IMG/VR virus record: IMGVR_UViG_3300012933_000077 | Span: 1-51,962 of that record | From: a virus | Taxonomy: Duplodnaviria; Caudoviricetes | DNA: 51,962 bases | Reading direction: 5' to 3' (one strand) | Shown here: in pieces, positions 2,062 through 51,878 of the stretch | How positions within the stretch are numbered: the stretch's first letter is position 1 | How the letters are laid out: the number at the start of each line of letters is the position of its first letter | The notes under the pieces: generated by a model | What the model was told of the DNA's origin: nothing | The model's input: the letters and a program-made list of their open reading frames with translations, nothing else | The model's database searches: none | Program-made: the position numbers and the translations under genes

Positions 2062-3423
2062 TTATCTATACTCCCAAATAAATACAGCGCCAGCGGTTCC
2101 TACACCACCAGCCCAGTTGTCGTTAGTTCTTCCGCCTGGTCCGCCGACGCCTGGGGCTGCCGTTCCGACCATTGACCCTGAACTGTTTCTATTGAATCCG
2201 CTGGCACCACCGAAATAACTACTACCACCACGAGCAGTTGCCGCATGGCTGTGGCTATTTGAGTGTCCAGTACCAGTACCACCATATAGGTTAATATCGC
2301 CACCGCTACCGTTGCCGCCATAACCACCTGTGTGGCTGAGGTTTCTGTTGGAACCATATCCACCAGAAGCTGATACATAAGATCCGAATGAAGAAGTTCC
2401 ACCGTCGCCACCTGCGGCATAATAACCAGTATTACTTCCACCACCACCCACTGTTACAGTGACAGTGCTAACTTGTTCAACGTTAATCAGTTTTTCAGCG
2501 TATCCACCACCGCCACCAGATTCACAGTAACCAGCGGCTCCGCCGCCACCACCGACAACCTTAACTAAAACTCTAGAACAATTGGTCGGTCGAATCCAAG
2601 TATATGTACCAGCCGAAGTCCATGACGACATTGAAATCATTTCGCCATGGTCTTTAGACATAGTGTTACCAGAAGTAGCCTGAACTGTACCATCGTTATA
2701 TACGATAGCCTCAGGTAAAACTGCTGGACTTGTCAAATCAACGTTCAACAAGTGTTCGATTGTTGGTTGATTACCATCAACGAGTTCAATTCTAGGTGAA
2801 TAGAACTGTAACCTTGTGGTTGAGTCTCCACAATAGTAGTGATATGTTCTATGCATACCAGTTGTAGCTGTGGCACTCCACTTACAATCCCATGGAATAT
2901 TTCCTATATTCGCAGAAACTTTACCACCGTTTTTTGACCAAATTCCAGTGTCTGGATGTGGAGCAGTGCCGATAGCCGTGGCTGTTGGGAATACATGACC
3001 TACGACTAGATACCATTGGTTTTGACTGAAGAATCCAGTAGTTCTATAATCAAAATATGGGTTAGTATTTGAAACACCGTCATGTAAACCAAGCACATCA
3101 TCTGCGCCGTTAGAGTGACAGCCCATATAAAATGTACCGCCACTTGTCGATGATATTCTTCTAACCCAAACGGAATAACGATATAATTTAGTTCGGTCGA
3201 TAAACACATGAGTACCTTCCCAACCACCGTCAGCGTCTGATGTTGAAGTTGGATAAGTACCCCAAACTAAAACAGATTGTCCATATGGACCAGTGTCATA
3301 GATTCTATTGTTCTCAGCAACAGTTCCGTTGATTGGGAAGTTATCTACTGTATTTTGCCCTGGCGTCCATGTAGACAAGTTAAGTAGGTTTAGGTTGTTT
3401 AGCTTTTTAAGTTGTACTGACAT
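2062..3423 (-). CDS. Tail fibre/adhesin: N-terminal beta-sandwich plus C-terminal glycine-rich domain
   Basis: C-terminal GT.TW..P..C..V.V.V.GGGGG...GAVFIWEY domain, paralogous to the next two genes. Confidence 0.75.
   Translation of the reverse strand: MSVQLKKLNNLNLLNLSTWTPGQNTVDNFPINGTVAENNRIYDTGPYGQSVLVWGTYPTSTSDADGGWEGTHVFIDRTKLYRYSVWVRRISSTSGGTFYMGCHSNGADDVLGLHDGVSNTNPYFDYRTTGFFSQNQWYLVVGHVFPTATAIGTAPHPDTGIWSKNGGKVSANIGNIPWDCKWSATATTGMHRTYHYYCGDSTTRLQFYSPRIELVDGNQPTIEHLLNVDLTSPAVLPEAIVYNDGTVQATSGNTMSKDHGEMISMSSWTSAGTYTWIRPTNCSRVLVKVVGGGGGAAGYCESGGGGGYAEKLINVEQVSTVTVTVGGGGSNTGYYAAGGDGGTSSFGSYVSASGGYGSNRNLSHTGGYGGNGSGGDINLYGGTGTGHSNSHSHAATARGGSSYFGGASGFNRNSSGSMVGTAAPGVGGPGGRTNDNWAGGVGTAGAVFIWEYR
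2341..2382. repeat. 42-bp exact direct repeat, copy 1 (copy 2 at 5136..5177)
   Basis: GTTTCTGTTGGAACCATATCCACCAGAAGCTGATACATAAGA, inside paralogous Gly-rich domains. Confidence 0.9.
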
Positions 3424-3427
3424 ATTA

Positions 3428-4849
3428 TTACTTATACGAATAAACTACAACAATACCGTTTTCGCCATATGCGACAGAACCACCACTACCATCATCGGTT
3501 CGTCCTCCTGGACCACCAGAACCCCAAGCGCCTGTGTATAGTTTAGTTACGGTGGTGTCTCTGCGTACAGTGGAAGATCCACCCCAGAACGAACCACCGC
3601 CAGTACCACCTGGATAATGACCGTGACTATTTCCGTGTCCAGTACCGCCACCACCGTATAGGTTAATTTGTCCACCAGACCCAACGCCGCCAGCGCCACC
3701 TGAGTGACTGTAGTTTTGATTCGCGCCGTATCCGCCAGAAGCAGATACATAAGAACCAAATGAACTTGTACCACCATTACCACCAGCAGCGTAGTACCCA
3801 GTGCTTGCACCACCTGCGCCAACCGTGACGCTTACTGTTGTGATGTTAGTTACATCGATCTCTTTTTCAGCATGTCCACCAGCACCACCTGATTCACAAT
3901 AACCAGCGGCTCCACCGCCACCACCTGTAACTTTAACTGAAACTTTTGTACAACCTTCAGGTTTAGTCCAAGTGAACGTACCAGCGCTCGCATATGATGT
4001 AATCGAAATAATTTCACCTTTAGATAAGCCACCGTCAGTTTTTACTTGGTTGGTTGAATCTTGATATGTTACACGCCCTTGGTATTGTTGCGTTGTTCCA
4101 TGGAATCTAGGACTTGTTGCATTATAAACTTGCAGACACTCAGCGTCAGTCAGTTGCCTATTCCAAGCACCGAACCAAGCGATGTCACCCCAATATTGAG
4201 CAGCTTGCATCGGGTCTGTACCAATATTATTACCATAAGCGCCAAGGGAATTAAACCCGTATTTGTAACCAGCGTTAGATGATGTGACAGAACCAACAAT
4301 AGTTCCTGGGGTGTCGTTGTAACTTAATTTAAATTGAGGTGATATAGAACTAAAACGGAATATAAGCATATTCCATCCATTAGTCGCATAGTTTGGAAGG
4401 CTCTGTTGACTATAACCAGTATTCTGAAAACCAGTACCGTTATTATTGTCATACGTGCCAATGTTCCAACTACCAGATGGACCAATGATAACATTATGAT
4501 CGGAACTAACACAACCTCTAGTCAGGGTTCTCCATTCGGCTGTGTTGTTCTTGATGCGTGTCCATACAATGTACGTCACGCTTCCTTGTTCTTTACCAAC
4601 CAGACCGATATCAGTACCTGACGACGCTTTGGCGCAACCGTATGATCCGTTGAAGTCCATAAACTTCACGCCAGAATTATTATATGCGTTTTGGTTGATA
4701 GTGAAATTATTTTTAAGACCGCTTAGATCATACCAAGTTTTTCCGCTACCATCAACGCCTGGATACGACTCCGTGTTTGCAGCATCTAACAAAACACAAA
4801 GTGCTTTTTTAGGAATATCTAATTGGGCTTTACCTAATGTTATTGCCAT
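3428..4849 (-). CDS. Tail fibre/adhesin: LamG/ConA-like lectin domain plus glycine-rich domain
   Basis: LLDAAN..SYPG...TWYDLSG and GDIAWFGAWNRQLT.AE..QVYNA are LamG-like signatures; Gly-rich C-terminus. Confidence 0.8.
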   Translation of the reverse strand: MAITLGKAQLDIPKKALCVLLDAANTESYPGVDGSGKTWYDLSGLKNNFTINQNAYNNSGVKFMDFNGSYGCAKASSGTDIGLVGKEQGSVTYIVWTRIKNNTAEWRTLTRGCVSSDHNVIIGPSGSWNIGTYDNNNGTGFQNTGYSQQSLPNYATNGWNMLIFRFSSISPQFKLSYNDTPGTIVGSVTSSNAGYKYGFNSLGAYGNNIGTDPMQAAQYWGDIAWFGAWNRQLTDAECLQVYNATSPRFHGTTQQYQGRVTYQDSTNQVKTDGGLSKGEIISITSYASAGTFTWTKPEGCTKVSVKVTGGGGGAAGYCESGGAGGHAEKEIDVTNITTVSVTVGAGGASTGYYAAGGNGGTSSFGSYVSASGGYGANQNYSHSGGAGGVGSGGQINLYGGGGTGHGNSHGHYPGGTGGGSFWGGSSTVRRDTTVTKLYTGAWGSGGPGGRTDDGSGGSVAYGENGIVVVYSYK

Positions 4850-4856
4850 ATAAACC

Positions 4857-5522
4857 TTATGTGTATGAGTATACTATAACGATACCAGCTGTACCATTTG
4901 AACCATACCAACCACCGTTCGATGGTCCACCAGCGCCACCAGATCCAGGTGCGCTAGTACCAACCCCGCCATAGTTAGCGTTGTGTGAAACTGCAAGACC
5001 TGTGCCGAAATATGTTTCGCCGCCACGTCCAATAGCACTACGACTACCGCTGGAACCATGTCCAGTACCAGTACCACCGTACACGTTAATATCGCCACCG
5101 CTGCCATATCCACCGTGACCGCCAGTATGCGCCACGTTTCTGTTGGAACCATATCCACCAGAAGCTGATACATAAGAACCGAATGAACTTGTGCCGCCGT
5201 CGCCGCCAGCAGCGTAATATACAACGTTACCGCCACCGCCACCTACTGTAACTGCGACCGAGTTAACAGCAGACACATCAATAACTTTTTCAGAGTAGCC
5301 TCCGCCACCACCTGATTCGCAATGATATGCTCCACCGCCTCCGCCACCTTGGACTTGAACTAGAACCTTCTTACAACCAGCTGGTTTATACCAAGTGCTT
5401 GTTCCGCTAGTGTATGTGTCAATTTTAATTAAAGCGCCAGAATCAGTTGTTGCGTCTACTTTAGTGTTTTGAGTAGACGCATCACTAAACGTGATACCAG
5501 TATTTGTTAACGATACGGACAT
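4857..5522 (-). CDS. Glycine-rich tail-tip/adhesin protein
   Basis: Short ITFSDASTQ N-terminus followed by the same glycine-rich domain. Confidence 0.75.
   Translation of the reverse strand: MSVSLTNTGITFSDASTQNTKVDATTDSGALIKIDTYTSGTSTWYKPAGCKKVLVQVQGGGGGGAYHCESGGGGGYSEKVIDVSAVNSVAVTVGGGGGNVVYYAAGGDGGTSSFGSYVSASGGYGSNRNVAHTGGHGGYGSGGDINVYGGTGTGHGSSGSRSAIGRGGETYFGTGLAVSHNANYGGVGTSAPGSGGAGGPSNGGWYGSNGTAGIVIVYSYT
5136..5177. repeat. 42-bp exact direct repeat, copy 2
   Basis: Identical to 2341..2382; a more diverged third copy lies near 3730..3780. Confidence 0.9.
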
Positions 5523-5524
5523 TA

Positions 5525-5977
5525 TTACACCCCTAGCTTGTCAACTCGTACTTTTAATTCTTTGATAGCTTCAATGATTAGTGGTATTAGTCGATCGTAT
5601 TGTACAGTCAAGTAGTCTTCACCAGAAATACTTGAACCGTCAGCGGCAATGTCAAACGGTGCAGGCTTGACGGCTTGAGGTTGAACCTTCTTAACGTCTT
5701 GGGCATACAAACCAACTTGCTCATCATAGTTGTTGTAACCGAATTGTTCTGCTAGTTTATTCTGAGTGTAAACAACACCAGTTAACTGTTCGACTTTGTC
5801 TAGAGCGTTTTTGATTTGCTCGACTTCTGTTTTTAATCTTTTATCGGAGTAATACGCTGTAATTTGGTTAGTCGCTCTAATCTCACCAGCTGTACCAGAT
5901 GCAGCAGTTCCAACGCCAATTGAGTTGGTTTGTTGGTTTGGGTTCATTACACCTGAAGATACTTTAGTTAATGACAT
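5525..5977 (-). CDS. Short fibre protein with C-terminal intramolecular chaperone (peptidase S74)
   Basis: YYSDKRLK...ALDKV..L.GV.Y...VGLYAQDV..VQPQAV...LTVQYDRLIPLIIEAIKEL. Confidence 0.85.
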   Translation of the reverse strand: MSLTKVSSGVMNPNQQTNSIGVGTAASGTAGEIRATNQITAYYSDKRLKTEVEQIKNALDKVEQLTGVVYTQNKLAEQFGYNNYDEQVGLYAQDVKKVQPQAVKPAPFDIAADGSSISGEDYLTVQYDRLIPLIIEAIKELKVRVDKLGV

Positions 5978-5979
5978 GT

Positions 5980-6300
5980 TTATTCCCCGTTGATTGTGTT
6001 GTTATCTTGAGTTTCCCACAAACATGTATCTGTGTTCAACACGGCATCTTCAGTGGGCTTAGGTGGGATGAATGCGTCTAGGTCTTTATCATACGTGTAA
6101 CCGACTGCTGCAAAATTCTTACGCAAGCCACCGCCGCCAGAGTTCTTAGTGAATACGTTAAAATATTCACCGCCGTGAGTATTATATGATGTTTGAATCC
6201 ATTCACTTGGAGACCCTACAGCCCCAGAATTAATGAAGTCTTGGTCTGCTACAATAACTTGAGTAACAATGCCATTTTCAACTTTTGCGAAATGTGCCAT
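5980..6300 (-). CDS. Conserved phage protein of tail-fibre regions
   Basis: MAHFAKV..GIVTQVIV...WIQTSYNT...RKNFA..GYTYD...DAFIPPKP family, common next to Gly-rich fibre genes. Confidence 0.7.
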   Translation of the reverse strand: MAHFAKVENGIVTQVIVADQDFINSGAVGSPSEWIQTSYNTHGGEYFNVFTKNSGGGGLRKNFAAVGYTYDKDLDAFIPPKPTEDAVLNTDTCLWETQDNNTINGE

Positions 6301-6308
6301 TTTATACC

Positions 6309-7718
6309 TTATAGATAAACTTTAACTAATACAATACCAGAGCCGCCAGAGCCAGAGCAAGAACCCCACCAAGCTTTTAGTGCAGCGTCTTCAGAAGCAC
6401 CACCGCCGCCACCGCCAGTTCCTGGGAGACCATTGATGCGGTTGATGTTGAACACGCCAGCAGCTTGTCCATACTCGCGAGCTGAAACACCGTTACCACC
6501 GCCACCTTGACCACCGACGCCTTGGGATAGTAGCGCTGTTGTTGAATAACTGCCGCCACCGCCACCGCCACCGAACCAACCACCTTCGCCGAACCAAGTT
6601 CCGAAGATTGCAGTTAGGTCTACGCCAGAGCCACCAGAGCCACCAGTAGAGTTGTTAGATGATACAACTGGTGCGCCACCAGCTCCGCCAGCTCCACCGC
6701 CACCTGCGCCACCATAGTTACCATTACCGCCACCATAACCACCAGAGTTACCTTTAGTGCTCCATCCAGCGTATGTTCCCTGATTAGATGCAGCGCCTTG
6801 AGTTAGAGCGTCAGTTGCGTTACGTGCGCCACCACCACCGCCAGAACCACCTTGTGTTGGACCAGCATAGTTATCAGAAGCACCACCGCCGCCACCGCCG
6901 TTAGCAGTAACACCAAAGGCGACTGTGTTATCACCCTTCATACCTGAAGTTGTTGCACTGTTCCACCCGTGGCTACGACCAGCGCCGCCAGCGCCCACGA
7001 TGATTGTATATGAACCAGCAGTTAGAGCGTGACCTTGTTTATAAGCTAGACCACCAGCACCGCCACCACCTTTACCTGTATCTTGGTCGCCATAACCTTG
7101 ACCACCAGCACCGCCACCACCGACCAATAAAATATCTGTAGTGATAGCTGTATCAGTGTAGAACACGCCACTAGATGTAAATGCGTGCAGTCTATATGTT
7201 GGAGTTTCAACAACTGTACCGCCAGTTGTATTTACCAAACTCTTAACAACTTGCCAACCTGAGCCATCATTAAACTCAATACATTTTCTATCAGTATTGT
7301 GTCTAAAATGTCCAATGACGTTAGTTCCTGGACGTTGTACTGTATTACCGCTTGGAATACCCATAGCGCCAGTACCGTTCGCATTAACAACATCATATTT
7401 TGAAGAAGTTACAACACCGTTAACGATAGTAGATGTGGTTACTGATGCATCGGCTGGAGTGATTGTAATACTCGTCGTACCCATAAATACACATTCAATT
7501 AGAGAGTTGGAAGGGGGCGCTTCCGAGAATGTGATTTGGTTTGTACCGACTGAATATGAAGAACTACTCTGTTTAACGCCGTCAACTGTGACGATCACAG
7601 AAGATGCAGTCGGAGGAGTTCTTGACAATGTAAATGATTGTGAGGAACCATTCCCCACAAACTGGTCTGATGTGTATTGAGAATACTTCGGTGCTGTTTG
7701 ACCTGTTAGTAGTGCCAT
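6309..7718 (-). CDS. Tail fibre/adhesin with glycine-rich C-terminal domain
   Basis: N-terminal F.GNGS...FTLS module, P.G.T.QRP..G..R.NT...W fibre repeat, long poly-Gly domain ending GSGIVLVKV. Confidence 0.75.
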   Translation of the reverse strand: MALLTGQTAPKYSQYTSDQFVGNGSSQSFTLSRTPPTASSVIVTVDGVKQSSSSYSVGTNQITFSEAPPSNSLIECVFMGTTSITITPADASVTTSTIVNGVVTSSKYDVVNANGTGAMGIPSGNTVQRPGTNVIGHFRHNTDRKCIEFNDGSGWQVVKSLVNTTGGTVVETPTYRLHAFTSSGVFYTDTAITTDILLVGGGGAGGQGYGDQDTGKGGGGAGGLAYKQGHALTAGSYTIIVGAGGAGRSHGWNSATTSGMKGDNTVAFGVTANGGGGGGASDNYAGPTQGGSGGGGGARNATDALTQGAASNQGTYAGWSTKGNSGGYGGGNGNYGGAGGGGAGGAGGAPVVSSNNSTGGSGGSGVDLTAIFGTWFGEGGWFGGGGGGGSYSTTALLSQGVGGQGGGGNGVSAREYGQAAGVFNINRINGLPGTGGGGGGASEDAALKAWWGSCSGSGGSGIVLVKVYL

Positions 7719-8891: not shown

Positions 8892-9911
8892 TTATCCGAT
8901 CAACCAACCACCGAAATAACAGTAGTTAGTATTCCCATGTAATTGAGTTGTACCTTTTTGTGAGAACACACCAACAGAATCGCCGACGCTTAGTTGAACT
9001 GTTGAAAATGCCGTATCGACATAATAACCGCCAACGCCAGTTGACCCTGCAACATATGCAGCTCTTCGGCTACTGTATGTGAAATTTGAACCGTTTTTTC
9101 TCAACAATATACAATCAGTCATATCTGTACCAGCAGGCACACCCCCGAAGATAACAGACGTATAAAAATAGTACAGTCCCGCAACTTGGGCTGTGTATAA
9201 ACCAGTGGCTGTTGAATATGCGTTGTCTCTGACAAAATTAAATCCGCCAGTGTCATTGAATAAAATGTTAGCGTTAGCTGTTGGGTTGTATGAAACGTTT
9301 AAACCAGCTCTAAATGCAGGCTGATATGGTTTCGTAACTCTACCGCTCTTGTCAATTGTTAATGAATCTGTAAAAGATGTCCCGTTCCAAAAGCCAAAAC
9401 GGTGGCGTCCACCAGCACCTCTAGAATCCGAAGTGTATAGAACATCACCGCCCGTTGTTGTAACTGATCGACCGAACGCTTTAACACCGACGCCTTGTTC
9501 GCCGAGTAATGGACTAGCTTCAAGAGATGCTGATGAAAAATCAGAAGCTGAAGAGATACCATAGTTTGGTGTTTTCAGATAACCTGTAAGTGGTAATGCA
9601 CCAGTCGCTGTTAAATATCTAGTGTCAGATTCATTCTTTGTATAATGTCCAGTTACTTGAAATTGATAAAAACAAATAACGGTTAAATAATCTCCAGCGA
9701 CAGCAGCTTGAGTTAAAACTACTGTAGATCCATTAACAGCTGCATAGTCGTCAGCGTCAGCTAGTCGTAACCCGTTAAGATACACGTCGATGTCACCGAC
9801 TTGATATCCGCCAGGAATTGTAAACGTTGTCTGACCAGCGGTCGCGACAAAGTTAGTTCGTTCGGCTGTTTTAGAAGCCGCTGGGTTTTTACCAGCTACT
9901 AAGAGACCCAT
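8892..9911 (-). CDS. Tail fibre protein with C-terminal C1q/TNF-like domain
   Basis: PAFRAG...ILFN...YSTATGLYTAQVAGLYYF...VQLSVGDSV.V...YFGGWLIG. Confidence 0.8.
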   Translation of the reverse strand: MGLLVAGKNPAASKTAERTNFVATAGQTTFTIPGGYQVGDIDVYLNGLRLADADDYAAVNGSTVVLTQAAVAGDYLTVICFYQFQVTGHYTKNESDTRYLTATGALPLTGYLKTPNYGISSASDFSSASLEASPLLGEQGVGVKAFGRSVTTTGGDVLYTSDSRGAGGRHRFGFWNGTSFTDSLTIDKSGRVTKPYQPAFRAGLNVSYNPTANANILFNDTGGFNFVRDNAYSTATGLYTAQVAGLYYFYTSVIFGGVPAGTDMTDCILLRKNGSNFTYSSRRAAYVAGSTGVGGYYVDTAFSTVQLSVGDSVGVFSQKGTTQLHGNTNYCYFGGWLIG

Positions 9912-11475: not shown

Positions 11476-11483
11476 TATTTATA
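11476..11483 (-). promoter_or_regulatory. T4 late promoter (TATAAATA)
   Basis: Exact T4 late consensus at the gene boundary. Confidence 0.7.
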
Positions 11484-12699
11484 GTCCGATATGCGTCTTG
11501 ATTTTATTGATTTCAACTCTAAGCTCTTTAATACCTTCAACTAGAAGCGGAGCAAAGCGAGAGTAGTCAATAGTCAGATATTGTTCGTCGATAGGTGCTG
11601 GACTTACGATTTCAGGCATAACTTTCTGAGTTGACTGCGCAGATAAACCAACTTCACGTTTAGCTGTATAGCCTAGTTCTTGAGCCTTGGCGTTTGCCTC
11701 ATAGTAGAAGCCAGTCAAAGAGTCAATTTTGTCCAGAGCATTCTCAATGTTACCAAGACGAGTCTTCAGATTATCATCAGAGTAATACGCAGTAATGTTA
11801 CCAGTGGCAATAATCTCACCAGCGCCAGCCACAGCTGTTGTATTTACAGATAGTCCGTTGATATATGCTTTATTGAAACGGTGATCAGTTTGACCGATGT
11901 CTCCAGAGCCGTTTGTTCCAGTGTGAGAAATACTACTTACAGCTGGGTCAGCGTTCAACGAAATTGTTGGGTTTCCATCTTTACCGTTACCATTAGATAC
12001 TGATAATGAGTTACCTACTTTAATTTCTCGAACAACTGATGAGTTTGTATCAGTACGAATTACAAGACCGTTACCAGTAGTAGCAGAAACGCCAGAAAGA
12101 ATAGCAGCATACGCTTGCACATCTTGACCGATAACCAAACCAAGGTTAGAACGTGCACCGCTGGCATTAGAAGCGCCAGTGCCGCCGTCAGCAACTGTTA
12201 AATCAGTAATGCCAGTAATTGTACCACCAGTAATGTCAATTTCAGATTTGTTCTGAATAGCCATATTACCGCAACCAAGGTTAGAACGTGCAGTAGATGC
12301 GTTAACGGCACCAGTACCGCCGTGATCCAATTGAACCACACCTTCAACGTTCGTCGCATTACCAGCTAGTGATCCAGTTACAGCGCCTGTAAGGTTGCCA
12401 ATAACATCACCAACGTGTAGTCCATAAAATTGAACAGCGTAGATATGACCAAGACCATCACGCAGAGCGACCGTGTTAGGTAGAGCTGCAGTATTTGGAT
12501 ATTTACCGTGTACCTTATCAGCGTCCAAAGTAGAACCAGCGCCAGCGTTGTTGTTTAAAACGTTTAGAACGTTCGTTGCGTTAAAAGCAACTGCGTCCAA
12601 CTTAGTACCAACTTCACGGTTGATAGCGTCAAAGTTATGATCGACTTCTTGAATCGTTAGAGGACGTTCAATATTCGCCCATAGGTTAATAGCAGCCAT
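11479..12699 (-). CDS. Tail fibre protein with S74 chaperone domain
   Basis: GGTGA.NAS.ARSNLG fibre repeats (2 copies); YYSDDNLK...VGLSAQ...MPEIV...LTIDYSRFAPLLVEGIKEL. Confidence 0.85.
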   Translation of the reverse strand: MAAINLWANIERPLTIQEVDHNFDAINREVGTKLDAVAFNATNVLNVLNNNAGAGSTLDADKVHGKYPNTAALPNTVALRDGLGHIYAVQFYGLHVGDVIGNLTGAVTGSLAGNATNVEGVVQLDHGGTGAVNASTARSNLGCGNMAIQNKSEIDITGGTITGITDLTVADGGTGASNASGARSNLGLVIGQDVQAYAAILSGVSATTGNGLVIRTDTNSSVVREIKVGNSLSVSNGNGKDGNPTISLNADPAVSSISHTGTNGSGDIGQTDHRFNKAYINGLSVNTTAVAGAGEIIATGNITAYYSDDNLKTRLGNIENALDKIDSLTGFYYEANAKAQELGYTAKREVGLSAQSTQKVMPEIVSPAPIDEQYLTIDYSRFAPLLVEGIKELRVEINKIKTHIGL

Positions 12700-44088: not shown

Positions 44089-44592
44089 CTAGTCTTTCTT
44101 ATAACGAACAGCTACAAAATGTACATTGGCATGGCGTTGATGCATTTCAAGCCAAACTTTACGCCAATGACGTATGAACCGATCTTGGTCCATATCCTTT
44201 TTCACAATCTCATCAGTTGCTGAAGAGATATCATCCTCAAAGATGGAATCGCAGCCCCAAATATGAACTTCGTCACTTCCATTATCAATTAAGTATTGAG
44301 CGGCATAGTGAGCCGAGTTATACCAATCGCGGGGTTTGAAAACATCTAAAATCAAATAGTCATTTACAATACGAAGCTCTTTCATTTTCTCAAAGACGTT
44401 TGTACTAATGATGAGCGGTGTGTCTCCGATTAGATGAGGGCTGTTCTTTAGAATCCAAACAATCTCCACGTCACAGATAACTGTAGCATCAACACTATAC
44501 TCATCAGTTGGGATATTACACCCTATAACAAAATCACCAGTCCTATCATAAGCAACCTTACTTGGACCATTTCCCAATACAACGCCTATCAT
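44089..44592 (-). CDS. Hypothetical protein, possibly sialyltransferase/Maf (DUF115)-like fold
   Basis: VVLGNGPS, IGCN, NSAH.A..YL...G..EVHIWGCD pattern. Confidence 0.5.
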   Translation of the reverse strand: MIGVVLGNGPSKVAYDRTGDFVIGCNIPTDEYSVDATVICDVEIVWILKNSPHLIGDTPLIISTNVFEKMKELRIVNDYLILDVFKPRDWYNSAHYAAQYLIDNGSDEVHIWGCDSIFEDDISSATDEIVKKDMDQDRFIRHWRKVWLEMHQRHANVHFVAVRYKKD

Positions 44593-44609
44593 AATATCTC
44601 CGAATTAGT

Positions 44610-45000
44610 GGGTGGTTATTCTGTTACGAGGAAACCACCCGAAACCCTAGTCAGCGATTAGGCTGCCAATGCGAAAACGTTGTCGTTTGCATTTACTTCT
44701 TTTGCTTCTTCGACCGAGTTACCCCAATCCTACGGGTTTCACATTCCCGTGCTGTCCACTTGTTTACTTGTTGCCCTGTCGAAACCATGGCATCCCCATC
44801 AAAAGTAATCGTTGCATTCTCAACCACTCGCCTTAGTGGTCGGTTAGGGAGGCTGTCCACACTACTAACACAGTCTTGACCTGATGCCCTAACTCGATGA
44901 CCGCTTTTATTCCTAGTCACTTCGGTGATTACTTTTGGTGGAGATGGGGGGAGTCGAACCCCCGTCCAGAACACTTTTCTATCCGCTTCATACAGCAATA
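44610..45000 (-). ncRNA. ssrA: Circularly permuted (two-piece) tmRNA
   Basis: The minus strand reads first the T-arm and 3' acceptor end (GGACGGGGGTTCGACTCCCCCCATCTCCACCA, ending at 44936), then a 138-nt insert, then the 5' end GGGGATGCCATGGTTTCGAC (starting at 44797). The acceptor stem GGGGAUG/CAUCUCC has the G3.U Ala determinant, helix CAGGGCA/UGUUCUG follows, and the tag frame is present. Outer ends are approximate. Confidence 0.92.
44658..44690 (-). other. tmRNA tag reading frame ANDNVFALAA*
   Basis: TAAAT GCA AAC GAC AAC GTT TTC GCA TTG GCA GCC TAA. Confidence 0.92.
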
Positions 45001-45006
45001 ACCTAT

Positions 45007-45035
45007 ATTATATATGATTTCTGATTAAAAGTCAA
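45007..45035 (-). promoter_or_regulatory. Sigma70-type promoter for the tmRNA
   Basis: TTGACT-17 nt-TATAAT ending about 7 nt before the predicted tmRNA start. Confidence 0.82.
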
Positions 45036-45435
45036 GGACTTTCTTTCCAATGAGCTCAGACCAATAATCAGCATCCTGAGTTGTAACTCGAATATCAACT
45101 GTTTCGGGTTTTACAAACATTTTATTTGTGTCAGAGTATTCACTCTCTTGGATCGTATCAACCCATACAATAAAATCAGGTTCAAAGTTTGTACGCATCT
45201 CAGGTAGAGGTGCCACAAAGTCAGCAATGACGTATTCTTTATCGCTTTCATCAGCGAGTTGACGCATTCTTAGACTTTGTCTAATTCTACCCTCGTGACT
45301 AAAATCCCAGTCATTATATTTCTCTCTAACAGCATCAGCATTGAGCCATAGACAGTTAGGAAATAATTGCCAAGTTAGAGCCGCAGCCAAAGTAGACTTA
45401 CCTGCTCCTGGGAGACCCATAATTAAAATTCTCAT
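45025..45435 (-). CDS. cysC: Adenylylsulfate (APS) kinase-like protein
   Basis: RILIMGLPGAGKSTLA P-loop, LNADAVR, DFS.EGR.RQ..R, DFVAP...R, F..PE..D. Start set at ATG 45435. Confidence 0.8.
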   Translation of the reverse strand: MRILIMGLPGAGKSTLAAALTWQLFPNCLWLNADAVREKYNDWDFSHEGRIRQSLRMRQLADESDKEYVIADFVAPLPEMRTNFEPDFIVWVDTIQESEYSDTNKMFVKPETVDIRVTTQDADYWSELIGKKVLDF

Positions 45436-45436
45436 A

Positions 45437-46033
45437 TCAAAACCTATACTTAAACCGATCAATATCTTCAGCGAATATTTCAGAAACTCGTTTCTTACTT
45501 TCTTCAGTGTAATAATCTACATAATGAGTTCGTTGGCTTATATTTTTAATAGGTAACGGTAAAGTATTACCAACAACCTTTTGAACTCTTTTAAAATCTT
45601 CTTCTAAAGATTCATATTTTAATACATCAACAGTATTATCTATCCACGAGCATTGATTACTGCTTAAAGTGTATGGACTGATAAAGGTATTTGGGTATAT
45701 GTCAATATTTAAAATCCAGTCATTGAATGAAACATCTTTCAGCCATTCAAATTCTTTATACACGACTGGCATCTTTTGTGTCAAGTGAGAGTATAAGCTG
45801 ACTGCGTAATCCCATGGGTTTCTAACAACGGCGAATGTGTAACCCAAATCAGAAACTTCTCGCCTTACTTCATTTACACCCCAATGTTCTTTAGTGTCAC
45901 AGAATCTACGCATAGTATAACCATTTGGTGGATATACACACATGAGCCTGAACCATTCAGTGATACTTGTACCAGCTGTTTTAGGTACATGTATGAACGT
46001 TACTGTGTTTTTACCAGTTACTTGAAATGTCAT
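45437..46033 (-). CDS. Sulfotransferase (family 2-like)
   Basis: FIHVPKTAGTSI (5'-PSB) and FAVVRNPWD..VSLY (3'-PB) PAPS-binding motifs. Confidence 0.88.
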   Translation of the reverse strand: MTFQVTGKNTVTFIHVPKTAGTSITEWFRLMCVYPPNGYTMRRFCDTKEHWGVNEVRREVSDLGYTFAVVRNPWDYAVSLYSHLTQKMPVVYKEFEWLKDVSFNDWILNIDIYPNTFISPYTLSSNQCSWIDNTVDVLKYESLEEDFKRVQKVVGNTLPLPIKNISQRTHYVDYYTEESKKRVSEIFAEDIDRFKYRF

Positions 46034-46683
46034 ACGTAATCAATATCAAATACAAAGACGTCTCGTGGTAATTCATTACCGTGAGTGCTAACTCCGTGCC
46101 AGACGTAAGGTGAGTGGATAACTAATAAACCTTGTTTTGGTTCAAGCCATGTAGTATCTTCTTGTTTAAAGAATTCTACTGGGGTATCTGCTTTTCCATC
46201 TTTAACAAATACCAAGTTAGAACTATCTGGCGGTACATTAACGTATAGAATACCAACGGCGTCTGGACAAAAGTTCTCGTGTCTATAACCAGTCATAGTG
46301 GCTAGATAATTGTCAATCTTAATATGCTGATGAACGTTACCAAACGAATCTTTCAACATACGATTAGCCCAACTACGTTTAAAATAAACGCCATTCCCTT
46401 TATGTGAATAACCCAAAGTATCTTTGACTGATAGGAATTGCTCTGTCAACCACTCTTTTAGATTATCTGCGCCAGGAAGGTCGATTAGTGGGTATGGTTG
46501 ACCAACGCTAGTCATACCACCACCCTTATGCGAGTCTCCGATTGTTTCTCTAACACGGTTTATAACAACTGGAGATTTGAATACCATATCAACACTATTG
46601 GTCAATAACTTATTCTTGTAGATTTGCTCATCGTCACATTGAATTTGAACAACTTCATGACCATAAATCTTTTCTACTTTCAT
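46030..46683 (-). CDS. 2OG-Fe(II) oxygenase-like protein
   Basis: SWAN......HQH, GILYV.VP..S.NLVF, PKQGLLVI....VWHGV..H....R. Confidence 0.75.
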   Translation of the reverse strand: MKVEKIYGHEVVQIQCDDEQIYKNKLLTNSVDMVFKSPVVINRVRETIGDSHKGGGMTSVGQPYPLIDLPGADNLKEWLTEQFLSVKDTLGYSHKGNGVYFKRSWANRMLKDSFGNVHQHIKIDNYLATMTGYRHENFCPDAVGILYVNVPPDSSNLVFVKDGKADTPVEFFKQEDTTWLEPKQGLLVIHSPYVWHGVSTHGNELPRDVFVFDIDYV

Positions 46684-48143
46684 ATCCCTATCATCCTCTT
46701 ATATTCATTAACTCTGAATTGCTCCAGTTCATACGTGTCGTACTTATCTAGAAGCTCCCGTTGAGTGTAGTTATATAAGTCATCTAATTTAAAACCATCA
46801 CTCAAAGCAGTTATCATATTGAAGCCAGCGTACTTATTCATCGGCGCTCGCATCATATTAAACCTCTTAGATATATCTAGACACAAATTAAATGATAGTT
46901 TTTCTCTTAGTTTCCATGATGAGTTATCTGTAGTGAACTTATATCCATAGGCTTCGTGGTTTAAACTGAACTCTGAACTATATCGTTCTGGAACACCCTT
47001 AACCAAACTCAATGGATAAAACCTAATCGCGTGGATTGGATTATCTTCCTTCATTGACCAAGTAATCAACTCATTGAAGTAACTCATACTGTCATGAGGT
47101 AATCCTAGAATGAAACCGCTTTCGATATTCACTCTGTTATTCCAAGTTTCGTTTAACCAATACAACCTATCAATTACTTTGTTCGGGTGTAACCCTTTAC
47201 CAATTGCTTTAGCTGAATCTGGTTGAAGAGTTTCAAGTCCAAAGAACGTACCAATCAAACCCATTTCTTGTAATAGTTGCGCTTGATGTGGATAACGGTT
47301 AATCAAGTCTATTCTAAGATATGATGCGAACTTTAACTTAAATGGAAGGCTTGTAAATAGTTTATGTAACGTTTCTATCTTATCGTTATCATCATTGAAC
47401 GTATCATCAGTGAAATAGTATGTATCCGTTCCATGAGTTTCCCAAGCTTGAACCATTTCATCTTTTACTTGATCAAAGTCACGAAGGTACGTGCCTTTCT
47501 TCTTACCGAGTAATGGATAGCTACAAAACTTACACTTGAATATACAACCTCTAGCCAATTCAATAGGTAACGCTTCGCCTGTGAAGACTTTAAAGTCTGT
47601 CCATCGAGTTGGGATATTTTTAACGTCAGGCTCAGGGTAGTTTAACGAATCAATCACCGACTCGAGATGACGGTTTGTTTTGATAGCCCCTGTAATATCA
47701 AGAATGGAATTATCGGCATTACCTAAAACATAATGATCAACTAGAGAATCAATTTCTAGGAAATATGGAGACTTAGCGCCACCGTAAATCAACTTGGCGT
47801 TACTATGTTCTTTGACATACTGTAACACTTTAATCACATCGTCATACTTTGTATAGTACATAGTATCAACCGACGATGTTTGGCTGATCTCAGATTGTTT
47901 GTTCCAGAAAAAGGTTGATGAAAAACCAACCCAAAGAGTATCATCGCTCAAATGAGGTTTGATAGCTTTTATTATCTCTTCAGGTGAAAGGTGTTGAATG
48001 AAATCAACAACAACTGTGGAGTAATTAGAGTCTTTGAGGGCAGTCGCTAAACGATATGCCCCCAAATTTCTTCTTAACTGAGCCCAACCATTATCAATCT
48101 CATTCTGCCCTGCTAGAATGATACAATTAGCCAAAGAAACCAA
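46680..48143 (-). CDS. B12-binding-domain radical SAM protein
   Basis: N-terminal GAYRLA..L......VVDF, VGFSST, LIYGGA; ELARGCIFKCKFC (CxxxCxxC), FTDDTFND, FGLET, GFILGLP. Confidence 0.85.
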   Translation of the reverse strand: MVSLANCIILAGQNEIDNGWAQLRRNLGAYRLATALKDSNYSTVVVDFIQHLSPEEIIKAIKPHLSDDTLWVGFSSTFFWNKQSEISQTSSVDTMYYTKYDDVIKVLQYVKEHSNAKLIYGGAKSPYFLEIDSLVDHYVLGNADNSILDITGAIKTNRHLESVIDSLNYPEPDVKNIPTRWTDFKVFTGEALPIELARGCIFKCKFCSYPLLGKKKGTYLRDFDQVKDEMVQAWETHGTDTYYFTDDTFNDDNDKIETLHKLFTSLPFKLKFASYLRIDLINRYPHQAQLLQEMGLIGTFFGLETLQPDSAKAIGKGLHPNKVIDRLYWLNETWNNRVNIESGFILGLPHDSMSYFNELITWSMKEDNPIHAIRFYPLSLVKGVPERYSSEFSLNHEAYGYKFTTDNSSWKLREKLSFNLCLDISKRFNMMRAPMNKYAGFNMITALSDGFKLDDLYNYTQRELLDKYDTYELEQFRVNEYKRMIGI

Positions 48144-49350
48144 CCCCTTCAGCGACAGTCAACCAACTGTTGATATAATATGACTTCATATAATCTTCAC
48201 TCTTCTCTGGGTTAGCCAAGTGTAGTTTATCTAAGTCTTGATTGGTTACATTATCCTTATTCATATCTCGCAACCTCAAAATAAACTCAGGGGTTTGGTT
48301 ACGTTCTTTAAACGTTGTCCAGAACTCACTATCAGTTCGTTTGGTTAGGTAATGTAAGTGAATAAAAATCATCAAGTCGCTATTAAAGTTTCGAACGACA
48401 TTGTTATACTTTTCGACAGCTCGTTCGCCATCCCTAATGTACATGGGGATGTATTCTTTTAAGAGTTGAAGAGATTTTACCTGAATCCAGATAGAAGTTG
48501 CTTCCATTGGTTCAGTGAAACCAGAAGCTAGACCGATGGCGATGCAATTCTTAATCCAAGTCTTGTCATAAGACCCAGCTTCAAAGTCAAAGAACCTAGG
48601 AACTGTAATTTCGTGACCGAGTAATTGTTCAACTTCTTCTTTGGCTTGTTCATCAGTTATGAAATTACTATCGAACACATATCCACAGCCATAACGACCT
48701 TGAACTGGGATTCTCCACATCCACCCATACTTCATAGCGACAGCGCCAGTATAATCTGGAATGTTACCATCGTGATCTATAAAGAACGGCATGGCTCTTT
48801 TAGCAGGTAAGTGTTTAGTGTAAGAGTTCCACGGGGATTTGTAGTGGTTACCGATAATTAAACGGCGGAGACCAGAGCAATCCATAACGAAGTCAGTGTC
48901 AACAACGTTACCAGAACGTAACGTTAGAGATTTGATACAACCTCTAGAATCTTCATTGATATCTGATACAATATCATCGATCAATTTAACGCCACGTGAT
49001 CGACCAACACCTTGTAAGTATTTGGCTAGAAGATTAGCGTCGAAGTGTAACGCATATTGACCTTCCCAGAACGGGTGGAAATAATCTTTATCATCTCCGT
49101 TCCAGTTAGTGAAGTTAATACCATTCTTAACTGTAGCCTTTGCATGCTCATACAAATCACTTTCTGGAATGTCTAAGTCTTTCAACAAATCCATAAAGTG
49201 TGGAGTTGTTCCTTCACCAGCGCCAAGGATACCTAACTCGCTACTGGCAATTACAGTAACATCAGAGTAAGGCATAAACTTCTTCAAACTCAAAGCAGTA
49301 AGCCAACCAGCTGTACCACCACCTACAACGACATATTGATACATGATCAA
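48127..49350 (-). CDS. Flavin-dependent (tryptophan-type) halogenase
   Basis: VVGGGTAGW, GAGEGT, ATVKNGINF.NW (catalytic Lys position), DCSG, GWMWRIP (WxWxIP), GL.SGF.EP.EATSI. Confidence 0.9.
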   Translation of the reverse strand: MIMYQYVVVGGGTAGWLTALSLKKFMPYSDVTVIASSELGILGAGEGTTPHFMDLLKDLDIPESDLYEHAKATVKNGINFTNWNGDDKDYFHPFWEGQYALHFDANLLAKYLQGVGRSRGVKLIDDIVSDINEDSRGCIKSLTLRSGNVVDTDFVMDCSGLRRLIIGNHYKSPWNSYTKHLPAKRAMPFFIDHDGNIPDYTGAVAMKYGWMWRIPVQGRYGCGYVFDSNFITDEQAKEEVEQLLGHEITVPRFFDFEAGSYDKTWIKNCIAIGLASGFTEPMEATSIWIQVKSLQLLKEYIPMYIRDGERAVEKYNNVVRNFNSDLMIFIHLHYLTKRTDSEFWTTFKERNQTPEFILRLRDMNKDNVTNQDLDKLHLANPEKSEDYMKSYYINSWLTVAEGVGFFG

Positions 49351-49976
49351 TCCTTAAATAAAATCTTACCGTTCTCTTCTCTAATCTTAACTTGCTCGAC
49401 TAATTGATCAACATAGAAGCTGTGCTTTTCTGGATTATTCCACATATGTTCAGGTACATATAAGTTGATAGCTGGAACGGACTGAGCAGTTCTCAAATCA
49501 ATCGCGCAGAAGTATTGGAATGCGTTTTGGCAATTGGCACGTTCGAGTTGGAACGGATCAATCAATTTTCTAATCTTAACTTGAATAACGTGATCAACAG
49601 TCATCAACAAGTCAGCTAATTTCTGAGCATTCTCTGGAACTTCCTCTAGCTTCAAAGACCCCTTCAACTGAACAACTTTACCTTCATGTGGTCTAAAATT
49701 GAACGTTGTAGAGGTACGACCTTGAGGGTCGTTCTCCAGAAAATCAAACCACTTTGGAATAAAATCCTTAGCAGGTTCGATCGAGTTCTTCAATAAGAAG
49801 TCGTTAGGTACGACCAACACAAAGGTCAATTCTCTTTCATCGACCACGTTGAATGCGATTGAGGGGATATCACCGATTTGTTGATACACGCTATAATCAG
49901 GTTCAGTAGCATAAACAAGTTTAACACCTTCTATGCTTTTAAGTAATTCAATATGATCGTGTAAAGAGTATTCCAT
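49347..49976 (-). CDS. Hypothetical protein coupled to the radical SAM gene
   Basis: TAATG overlap with the rSAM gene and 4-nt overlap with the halogenase; no recognisable motif. Confidence 0.75.
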   Translation of the reverse strand: MEYSLHDHIELLKSIEGVKLVYATEPDYSVYQQIGDIPSIAFNVVDERELTFVLVVPNDFLLKNSIEPAKDFIPKWFDFLENDPQGRTSTTFNFRPHEGKVVQLKGSLKLEEVPENAQKLADLLMTVDHVIQVKIRKLIDPFQLERANCQNAFQYFCAIDLRTAQSVPAINLYVPEHMWNNPEKHSFYVDQLVEQVKIREENGKILFKD

Positions 49977-51418
49977 TAGTTCTCCAGTCTAGATTGTCCG
50001 TAGATTTCTACGTCGTTAATCTTTCCGATTTTTTCAGCGACTACCTTAATTGGTATCACCTTTTGTTTAGGTTTTTCTTCATGTGTATATAATGTACCCC
50101 AGATGTCTTGGCGATCTAGTGGAAGACCGTCAGCTTTAATAGACATTGGAATATACCCACCAGTGATTCTAGCGAAAGCAACTGCAAATAGAGCAACGTT
50201 ATCAGAATAAGCGCTGGCGCATGTAGCGTCCCAATACTTACCATCCAAGTACATACAAGAACCTTTACACAAGTGTAGCACTGGACACTCAGAGCAGTGA
50301 TCGCGGTTCTTCCAATGTGTAACTGACTTCAAAGCAACGTTATCATAGTCGTCTAAGTTACCACCCGAGTGACTCTCACCATTCTTACTTGTTTCAACGA
50401 TAGAAACGTTCTGGCAAGTTACGATATTACCTTTGAGGTCAAGGGCGATTACATGCTCATCATCCATACCACACTTTTGACCAACATATTTTGATTCAGT
50501 GTGAGCTAATACGTCTTTGATAAAGTTATCAATCTTCTGTAGAGTGTTACCGAAGCCAATTTGACCATCGGTACTGTATAAGTCATTGAACGCTGTTCTA
50601 CGATATTCAAAATGCTCAGCATAAGTTTGAAGAGAACTACCAATGGCAGCTTCGTCGTAAGCGTCAATGAAACTACCTTCGCCGATGCGCACATCTTCGC
50701 GACCTGTAGCTTCAACGAACCACTTATACACAGCTTCACGGCTAGTGTTCTCTCTATGCATCATCGTATTGAAACTAATACGGTTTTGTTCGTGCATAAT
50801 GTTATAGAACTCTAGAATAATTTTCTTTTGTTCGGCGTCATCGAATGGATCTGGACCACGAGCGTGTTGACCAGGACCATCATGGCTAATACCAATGTTG
50901 AAGTTCATATAGTACAACCAAGAACAAATCTCACGAGTCAACAATGAGCCGTTAGTAACCATACTGAACAAAGGACGGTTCTTTTCCCAGTGGCTATACT
51001 TTTCCACAATAGCTTCAGTGAGTGGTTTTAATGTTTTCCAATAAACCAAAGGCTCACCACCCCAGAATTCGATTTTCAAACCACGTTCTTCAGTTAGGTT
51101 TAATACATCCAACTTAGCCAAGAACGCTTCGATATCTTTCTTCGATGTTTCTGGTGGACGCTCAACAAAACGCTGAGAACAATAGTCACATGTGTAGTTA
51201 CATGACAAACCCAACTGGATTTTAATAACAGCGATATCTTTAGATTTCTTTAGGGGATCATCTTTAGAGAACGCACGTGTTTCATGACGACACGGTTGCT
51301 GGATTGTAGGATACTCAAATACCTTATCGTCAGTTTCTTTCAAAACGTTCAATGTATTATCATAGTAGAATGTTTTAGTTTCACCAGTTGTTGTACCAGC
51401 AAGAATTTCAAAAATCAT
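49976..51418 (-). CDS. Radical SAM/SPASM-domain protein (peptide maturase-like)
   Basis: CNYTCDYC, FWGGEPL, VTNGSLL, ISHDGP; SPASM KCG...G.IVTC...CSECPVLHLCKGSC...C. Confidence 0.92.
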   Translation of the reverse strand: MIFEILAGTTTGETKTFYYDNTLNVLKETDDKVFEYPTIQQPCRHETRAFSKDDPLKKSKDIAVIKIQLGLSCNYTCDYCSQRFVERPPETSKKDIEAFLAKLDVLNLTEERGLKIEFWGGEPLVYWKTLKPLTEAIVEKYSHWEKNRPLFSMVTNGSLLTREICSWLYYMNFNIGISHDGPGQHARGPDPFDDAEQKKIILEFYNIMHEQNRISFNTMMHRENTSREAVYKWFVEATGREDVRIGEGSFIDAYDEAAIGSSLQTYAEHFEYRRTAFNDLYSTDGQIGFGNTLQKIDNFIKDVLAHTESKYVGQKCGMDDEHVIALDLKGNIVTCQNVSIVETSKNGESHSGGNLDDYDNVALKSVTHWKNRDHCSECPVLHLCKGSCMYLDGKYWDATCASAYSDNVALFAVAFARITGGYIPMSIKADGLPLDRQDIWGTLYTHEEKPKQKVIPIKVVAEKIGKINDVEIYGQSRLEN

Positions 51419-51435
51419 AATTTAGCCTTATATAA

Positions 51436-51843
51436 TTACCAGCAGTTACAAACGAAGCAATCGCAGTTACAGTTAATAGAGTGAGTGTTTTGAGTACAGT
51501 TGTATGTGCAGTTACAGTTACAGTTTGGTTGTAGATACTTAGTAGTACCATCACAATTCACACAATTGATAGCGTTGCAATTTAAACAGTTCGGGCAATT
51601 AACGTTACCACAATTACAATTGGATTCTGTACAATTACCATTATTACAGTTACCTTCAGTTGTTGATGCTTCATACCCCTTCGCGTGGGTGTTATCCATA
51701 TCAGAAATAACATTAACAGCTCCACCGCGAGTTGTTCTTGTGTTAGCTTTTACCCAATTTAAACCAAGTTGGTTTGTACCATTTCCAATTTCAGCATTAA
51801 TATTATTGATTGAAATTGGCTGCCCGAATGCAGGTGTTGTCAT
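51436..51843 (-). CDS. Asn-Cys-rich protein; candidate radical SAM substrate/precursor
   Basis: 65-aa Cys-free N-terminal part, then 18 Cys in the last 70 aa (16 as Asn-Cys); ends ...CNCW; AGGGG SD; 17 nt upstream of the rSAM gene. Confidence 0.85.
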   Translation of the reverse strand: MTTPAFGQPISINNINAEIGNGTNQLGLNWVKANTRTTRGGAVNVISDMDNTHAKGYEASTTEGNCNNGNCTESNCNCGNVNCPNCLNCNAINCVNCDGTTKYLQPNCNCNCTYNCTQNTHSINCNCDCFVCNCW

Positions 51844-51870: not shown

Positions 51871-51878
51871 TATTTATA
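51871..51878 (-). promoter_or_regulatory. T4 late promoter (TATAAATA)
   Basis: Exact consensus 28 nt upstream of the start of the Cys-rich gene. Confidence 0.72.

Follow-up and report, generated by a model that had tools for sequence, protein, structure and literature searches.

A short gene on the minus strand at positions 51436..51843 of the window (the whole 51,962-nucleotide stretch of viral DNA that was analysed) encodes a protein of 135 amino acids in which cysteine is nearly always preceded by asparagine, and raises the question of what a phage makes with such a protein and with the radical SAM (rSAM) enzyme encoded beside it. The protein is likely to be a fibre-tip (adhesin-type) protein and a substrate of that enzyme. 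Residues 1-65 contain no Cys and residues 66-134 contain 18 (66, 71, 76, 78, 83, 86, 89, 94, 97, 108, 110, 112, 116, 125, 127, 129, 132 and 134). Asn stands before 16 of the 18, with Asp before C129 and Val before C132, and the C-terminal end reads CDCFVCNCW. An earlier note, made from the letters of the DNA, had described this split and the 16 Asn-Cys dyads, and its counts were exact; in 100,000 shuffles of residues 64-135 no more than 13 dyads arose, against the 16 of the real protein. When all ORFs of the window were scanned, the tract occurred in one real-looking ORF only. The 135-aa protein matched no Pfam, NCBIfam or PHROG family. The existence of 78 homologues of similar length, and of 177 distinct family sequences altogether, indicates that the gene is conserved.

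The core of the protein corresponds to residues 65-135 (51439..51651, minus strand) and includes the 18 Cys, the 16 dyads and a terminal Trp. Cys accounts for 23% of it, in CxC and CxxC spacings, and in an AlphaFold2 model of the unmodified protein its pLDDT is mostly below 50. Across the 177 distinct homologues the residue preceding a core Cys is Asn in 73%, Ala in 13%, Asp in 7% and Gln in 4% of cases. The fraction of Asn or Asp (N/D) at -1 of Cys is 0.80, against a background of 0.36, with 0.48 at -3 and 0.41 at +4; once overlapping dyads are removed, the values at -3 and +4 are 0.27 and 0.31 against a background of 0.19. In addition, N/D precedes 2,257 of 2,744 alignment cells that hold Cys and 62 of 304 cells in which Cys is lost, counts which are inflated by related sequences, the cells not being independent. 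Since N/D mostly goes when Cys goes, the dyad is, as judged from the alignment, the conserved unit of the family, which agrees with the proposal in the earlier note. The spacings of the precedents invoked there, Asn at -3 in NxxcA for NxxcB and Asp at +4 (CX3D spacing) for PapB, are not the conserved ones; -1 is. N70 is an exception to the coupling, being kept in 34 of the 39 rows without C71. This retention, together with the Ala and Gln that may precede Cys, indicates that some Asn residues of the core are structural. Duplicated units, e.g. CSNCQVCTPIN and YNCSTSAVS, are present in the expanded substrates P0151, P0152, P0156, P0108 and L209:7581-8429, the last of which has 27 Cys, and suggest that the core grows through repeat expansion.

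The rSAM/SPASM enzyme (480 amino acids; 49976..51418, minus strand) starts 17 nt past the stop codon of the Asn-Cys gene and matches phrog_1802 (E 3.5e-65), with PF04055 and TIGR04085 above cut-off (33.7 against 27 bits for TIGR04085, the SPASM model). The SAM-cluster motif CxxxCxxC (C73/C77/C80) is invariant in 51 of 51 aligned rows, as are the SPASM Cys at 316, 335, 375, 378, 384, 388 and 400. Exactly seven SPASM Cys are present in 105 of 107 enzyme homologues and eight in the remaining two, and in all 107 the 25 residues that precede the first of them are free of Cys. Enzymes of the anSME type have an eight-Cys pattern, in which one more Cys ligand precedes the first of the SPASM Cys. The seven-Cys pattern is presumably that of CteB, in which the first auxiliary cluster has an open site, and not the fully ligated pattern of anSME. 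An AlphaFold2 model of the enzyme (pLDDT 89) has CteB as its closest solved structure (E 2.5e-11; Z 23.6, rmsd 3.9, 352 residues aligned), with the alignment covering enzyme residues 1-420. The N-terminus of the model comprises three strands with no helix before residue 81, so the helices of an RRE, which comprises three strands and three helices, are absent from it; an RRE may still be supplied in trans by a partner. The next structural matches, ChlB (Z 20.1), anSME (19.4) and TigE (18.0), are close behind CteB, and the fold therefore does not fix the chemistry; the modelled fold favours thioether chemistry without proving it.

Membership of several named enzyme groups was considered and rejected. 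For anSME, the extra Cys is found in 0 of 107 homologues and TIGR03942 scores 52 bits against a cut-off of 349. For the PapB family (NF047865) the score is 85 against 340 bits, and N/D at +4 is far below that at -1, and for the NxxC subfamily N/D at -3 is close to background after removal of overlapping dyads (0.27 against 0.19). No named maturase model was above cut-off among the matches listed (25 of 46), of which PapB was the best. Bacterial relatives of the enzyme (L172:5141-9173, L173 and L174, from Polaromonas, Burkholderiales and Ramlibacter) follow an ATP-grasp-like gene, a YcaO-nitroreductase fusion and a peptide of 67-72 aa. These clusters lie near secretion-type genes, their peptides are without an NC tract, and they represent a separate candidate RiPP cluster; with YcaO and such peptides as neighbours, the enzyme clade at large extends beyond NC substrates. 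In Ralstonia phage RP12 (L085:4114-9224) three consecutive radical SAM genes, one of them a 28% relative of the enzyme, lie next to genes for virion structural proteins, and the ORFs listed for that locus include no NC tract.

The association of the enzyme with the Asn-Cys gene has been observed in loci collected in several ways. Among loci seeded on the rSAM gene (the best 80 of 144), an Asn-Cys gene was present in 77; of the exceptions, L056 has a substrate just below cut-off, and L015 and L058 stop at contig edges. Among viral loci seeded on the substrate (the best 80 of 104), a set that overlaps the first, the rSAM gene was present in 79, and in the sole exception, L110, the contig ends 156 bp past the substrate. 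The gaps between the two genes are mostly below 60 bp. Metagenomes scanned with a degenerate pattern yielded 120 loci, from which four without a readable ORF and four duplicates were dropped to leave 112. The enzyme was present with 68 of these 112 distinct substrates overall and with 32 of the 32 that had flanks of at least 3.2 kb upstream and at least 1.6 kb downstream, and all 44 negatives had a short flank on one side at least. The pairing is nearly obligate, which supports the adjacent rSAM partner named in the earlier note, as does the seven-Cys SPASM type of the enzyme with CteB as its closest solved structure. Occurrence of a metallothionein-like protein without the rSAM gene, which that note had set against its own reading, was seen in no locus with adequate flanks. 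A survey of 50,697 phage records found only five with a near-full-length homologue at more than 40% identity (RSP15, JWF and Achromobacter phage 2-1, duplicates counted). Identities among substrates correlate with those among enzymes (rho 0.39, 0 of 500 permutations), which is explained by shared ancestry, and the pair has moved jointly among tail modules of myovirus, siphovirus and prophage type. In the short class of homologues the Cys count is even in 49 and odd in 52, in keeping with the earlier opinion that nine disulfides are unlikely. Equal odd and even counts and near-obligate pairing together make it unlikely that the protein is a stand-alone metal binder or folds through disulfides at every Cys, and we are strongly confident that the enzyme acts on the Asn-Cys protein in some way. 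In some loci of the class whose substrates end in a KIIC domain (L006:4623-5345, L042:7440-8896, L054 and L071), one or two His-box membrane proteins, which we take to resemble fatty-acid desaturases, are encoded between enzyme and substrate.

The Cys-free part of the protein was described in the earlier note as leader-like. The division itself stands, whereas the leader framing is disfavoured, because the N-terminal part is predicted to be folded and is common to Cys-free proteins; the tract is moreover also carried by fibres that lack this part. Residues 1-60 (51664..51843, minus strand), delimited by AlphaFold2 and profile matches, form a module with pLDDT 83-90 and three predicted helices (12-19, 28-34 and 49-52), which may be a fibre-attachment domain. 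A profile of this module matches P0160 and P0162, which are Cys-free, adhesin-like phage proteins, and hhalign aligned the module with residues 1-53 of P0160 at a probability of 97.6. The same profile reached 478 representatives at E<=0.001. Among the best 150 of these, 139 were newly listed, comprising 80 with an NC tract, 9 that are Gly-rich, 31 with other bodies and 19 that are short. The model phrog_2056 ('tail fiber protein; host specificity') was matched by 5 of 11 Cys-free module proteins, from residue 44 on, a match with most of the shared module lying before its start. Against the Pfam GP38 model P0160 stays under cut-off (E 0.022), and the Pfam scan gave no match for P0162. For the module itself there was no Pfam match, and fold searches of the PDB, solved gp38 structures included, gave no solved-structure match. 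A BFVD fold search with the substrate model returned one relative and weak rows, such as those at E 5.8 and 8.2, and the Atlas search returned unnamed clusters only, with gp38 rows below the naming bar. Residues 1-65 are probably not a leader.

Gene order beside fibres with an S74 chaperone provides independent support for a virion role of the N-terminal module. Such a fibre gene lies directly upstream of 14 of 100 distinct substrates, and a fibre or fibre-tip gene precedes 8 further cassettes; in the metagenome set 8 of 30 were fibre-adjacent. Most family members are not fibre-adjacent, and in the window only 119 bases lie upstream of the Asn-Cys gene, with no fibre gene seen adjoining. The 177 homologues themselves comprise 101 short proteins, 61 that end in a KIIC domain, 14 with an S74-like tail and one with a Hint domain. 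Direct fusions are also found: in Achromobacter phage JWF a 483-aa fibre (gp028), encoded two genes before the enzyme, bears an NCNCDCNCNC tract together with a Hint domain, and in Ferrovibrio prophages (four loci) an NC ladder is at the end of a collagen-like fibre, which is split in one of them. The fibres of 480-615 aa to which the tract is fused are without the N-terminal module, and the side fibre of RSP15 ends TNCQCGN. L135 and L234 have the JWF layout in split form, with a JWF-like fibre gene followed by a separate gene for module, NC tract and Hint domain. The Asn-Cys protein is, with considerable confidence, a part of the virion.

The window holds two candidate docking partners for the module. 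The first is a tail fibre with a C-terminal S74 chaperone (11479..12699, minus strand; PF13884 at residues 307-365), the tip of which resembles the tips of substrate-adjacent fibres elsewhere, and the second is a short fibre-tip protein with an S74 chaperone (5525..5977, minus strand; PF13884 at residues 44-104). A complex prediction of the module with a fibre-tip trimer (11782-11916) scored 0.01 against a mark of 0.32, a result that counts neither way; the partner fibre was a guess. Elsewhere among the tail genes, four Gly_rich_2 proteins are encoded within 2062-7718 (minus strand) and a C1q-domain protein at 8892-9911, which amounts to a large adhesin-like set. The KIIC domain, present in L027:5578-6105 and about 60 homologues, has about 175-180 aa, begins CSKIIC(A/T)KL and includes a hydrophobic C-terminal stretch. 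It occupies the place of the S74 or Hint tails of other members, its carriers group as a single clade in the enzyme tree, and searches matched it to no family, structure or Atlas name.

Given the nearly constant rSAM neighbour and an N-terminal module common to adhesin-like proteins, it is likely that these phages cross-link their host-binding fibre tip by chemistry of the kind used on peptide antibiotics. On balance we favour a reading in which the Asn-Cys protein is a fibre-tip (adhesin-type) protein of the virion that keeps its anchor and whose core is cross-linked by the adjoining rSAM/SPASM enzyme, through many Cys-Asn thioethers between neighbouring residues. The Asn-Cys gene would be expressed late. 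The enzyme would cleave SAM and take a hydrogen atom from the residue preceding each Cys, the thiol of which may be held by an auxiliary cluster with an open site. Sulfur would then join the neighbouring residue, and this step would be repeated along the core. By inference, each Asn-Cys dyad would close either at C-alpha as a six-membered thiomorpholinone, as in enteropeptin, or at C-beta as a seven-membered ring. That up to 16 dyads yield a chain of thiomorpholinones or thiazepanones, and so a non-proteinogenic polyheterocyclic tip, with halogenation of the terminal Trp by a flavin-dependent halogenase added in one branch of the phages, is a more speculative extension and rather unlikely. The N-terminal module would stay uncleaved and dock the protein on a fibre trimer processed by S74, as gp38 caps gp37, and the S74, Hint or KIIC tails of homologues may be removable C-terminal helpers. 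The likely benefit would be a rigid binding tip, resistant to proteases and oxidation, that can be formed in the reducing cytoplasm.

The components of this scheme have precedents in known systems. The closest are CteB/CteA (SCIFF; PDB 5WGG, 5WHY) and PapB/freyrasin, which share the rSAM and SPASM fold, an adjacent Cys-rich substrate and Asp or Asn near several Cys; the phage enzyme differs from CteB and PapB in its identity of 16-18%, in having no full RRE and in an acceptor candidate at -1, and its substrate differs from theirs in being phage-encoded, with a folded, shared N-terminal domain and a tail-fibre context. Freyrasin has six Cys-Asp beta-thioethers, and in the streptococcal RaS-RiPP NxxcA the enzyme NxxcB links the sulfur of Cys23 to the beta-carbon of the upstream Asn20, as described in the available part of one source (PMC8326336). 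NxxcA has one bridge, with Asn at -3; in the phage protein Asn is at -1, in up to 16 dyads. Linkage of direct neighbours is represented by enteropeptin, where the sequence MKGOCPPS contains a six-membered thiomorpholine made from Cys and the preceding residue (PMC12395415, excerpt), and by TqqB, which joins Thr to the adjacent Gln (PMC13361665, excerpt). Enteropeptin belongs to the KGR sactipeptides and, in that excerpt, its link joins sulfur with the preceding residue's alpha-carbon and is made by an rSAM enzyme, a geometry open to an Asn-Cys dyad; it is unlike the phage protein in being a short released peptide with a single ring on N-methylornithine. QhpD makes rSAM thioethers, of the Cys-Asp and Cys-Glu types, outside the RiPPs, in quinohemoprotein amine dehydrogenase, but its target is a bacterial enzyme subunit with long-range links, and the phage enzyme scores 70 against a cut-off of 453 bits with TIGR03906.

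For the anchor, the precedent is the T-even pair gp37/gp38. Some homologues of the phage protein (the 14 of 100 above) resemble it in being encoded by a small gene after an S74-processed fibre, and the bodies of module relatives match gp38-type PHROG and Pfam models. The phage protein is unlike gp38 in that the Asn-Cys core replaces the beta-helix and polyglycine sandwich. To our knowledge, gp38 needs no modifying enzyme. The polyglycine-sandwich body of gp38 (PF05268) was sought in the 135-aa protein and rejected, with no Pfam or PHROG match. In gp38 an N-terminal domain serves to attach the adhesin to the fibre, and the body is variable, according to the portion of PMC12032242 that is available.

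Among other explanations, the one to be taken most seriously retains the virion protein and its dedicated enzyme and changes the chemistry or topology, to inter-chain or longer-range links, anSME-like oxidation of Cys, dehydrogenation or epimerisation of Asn, or only a few thioethers, with metal bound by the remaining Cys. We give this a minority but appreciable probability, since the folds of anSME, ChlB and TigE score nearly as high as that of CteB, and conserved Cys are also found after Ala, Gln and Val/Ile. A beta-strand that displays every Cys on a single face would be compatible with the alternating (NC)n or (AC)n runs. S74 tails have an established role in association with trimers, which would allow inter-chain links in those members that carry them. 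Oxidation of the anSME kind is opposed by the absence, in 107 of 107 homologues, of the extra Cys before the SPASM motif, and long-range links by the coupling of Asn or Asp to the very next Cys, which fits a local reaction.

Two further explanations dispense with either the anchor or the modification. A classical RiPP, with residues 1-65 as a structured leader that is removed and the cross-linked core set free as a diffusing toxin or signal, would account for the clean division into Cys-free and Cys-rich parts and for the tailoring-type genes downstream in the window, and structured leaders are known in proteusins, as stated in the accessible part of PMC10858898. It is nevertheless improbable: the module occurs on many Cys-free proteins (40 of the 139 listed representatives being Gly-rich or with other bodies), the tract is fused to long fibres that lack the module, fibre adjacency and S74 tails point to the virion, and no transporter or dedicated protease was noticed among the cassette neighbours that were read. 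Slightly less probable still is a plain metal-binding or disulfide-bonded fibre tip, metallothionein-like, with the rSAM enzyme directed at another target. The Cys-rich core with its CxC and CxxC spacings would suit such a tip, and metal-bound examples are known among the fibre tips of T4. Against it are the rSAM gene in every locus with adequate flanks, the joint movement of the pair among types of tail module and the equal frequency of odd and even Cys counts; metal binding, moreover, leaves the Asn or Asp at -1 unexplained.

With the cross-linked, anchored fibre tip as the preferred reading, what is likely to be new is the application of known rSAM thioether chemistry to a virion protein by way of a two-residue motif. 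Radical SAM thioethers are known from bacterial peptides and one enzyme subunit, and in the papers found they are not described from virus particles. No published description of an Asn-Cys/rSAM phage system was found in a search that covered articles without their supplements, and some phage genome paper or table may yet mention it. If the reading is true, host-recognition proteins in a widespread aquatic phage group are remodelled chemically after translation, so that their structure and specificity could not be read from sequence alone. It would also give a role to phage radical SAM enzymes that are annotated by domain only (phrog_1802), and possibly to phage halogenases, and the enzyme, as a cross-linker that acts on a two-residue motif many times over, would be of use for protein stapling.

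Downstream of the enzyme, a 209-aa protein (49347..49976, minus strand) often directly follows the rSAM gene and may be a chaperone; it matched no family in Pfam, NCBIfam or PHROG. An iterated profile placed 33 of 62 rSAM-downstream genes in its family, the window's own included. Next is a homologue of flavin-dependent Trp-halogenases (48127..49344, minus strand; PF04820 E 2.7e-98), an optional accessory and a candidate modifier of the terminal Trp. Its GGGTAG, WMWRIP, ATVKNG and PMEAT align with solved halogenases (6FRL, 6NSD) and supply the GxGxxG and WxWxIP motifs and the active-site Lys and Glu. It is without an internal segment of 55-75 aa that about half of its relatives keep, and VirX1 matches it at E 1.8e-45. 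In loci with at least 3.5 kb downstream, a halogenase homologue was nearby in 18 of 18 with a substrate ending in Trp and in 1 of 66 others. The W-ending substrates form two clades only, and among new metagenome substrates whose downstream flank was 5.5 kb or longer, the halogenase was found in 3 of 4 W-ending and 5 of 13 other cases; halogenation of the terminal Trp is consequently only a weak side hypothesis. That the homologue modifies this Trp is conceivable, and we would sooner doubt it than assume it. If it were true, a halogenated terminal Trp would be a natural substrate for phage halogenases. In the proteusin system, the C-terminal Trp of an LCCCW core is the site of bromination by SrpI (PMC10858898, accessible part). 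VirX1, a flavin-dependent halogenase from a phage, has an open site, and the available part of PMC8407142 describes unnatural substrates for it. In comparison with these, the link between terminal Trp and halogenase in the phage cassette is incomplete, as the new loci show, and putative.

Other genes are more loosely linked to the cassette. A second radical SAM protein, of the B12-binding type by weak NCBIfam matches (46680..48143, minus strand), has matches in 27 of 80 and 16 of 80 loci of the two seeded sets, and a 2OG-Fe(II) oxygenase (46030..46683, minus strand) in 10 of 80 and 22 of 80. Sulfotransferase and APS-kinase-like genes are present downstream of the cassette at 45025-46033 (minus strand); the sulfotransferase was rejected as a member of the system, having been matched in 1 of 80 loci of each set. 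A second Trp-halogenase-like gene, at 2-322, runs off the window.

The window comprises the entire assembly, and the phage is presumably T4-like, as judged from its translated ORFs. The element TATAAATA (51871..51878, minus strand) lies 27 nt upstream of the start codon of the Asn-Cys gene, and we assume it to be the consensus of a T4-type late promoter. It is not enriched in the window (3 matches against 2.55 expected), and of 97 related cassettes 16 have it in the 120 bp upstream, compared with 93 among 1,999 other ORFs. Two freshwater metatranscriptome assemblies include contigs of low depth that cover the genes for the rSAM enzyme and the substrate, which is no proof of transcription. The best-matching public sequencing runs are freshwater or unspecified metagenomes. 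A two-piece (permuted) tmRNA of betaproteobacterial type, with the tag ANDNVFALAA, is encoded at 44592-45043 (minus strand), which hints, at the level of sequence, at a betaproteobacterial host, and deep contig cover of this tmRNA was present in one RNA run.
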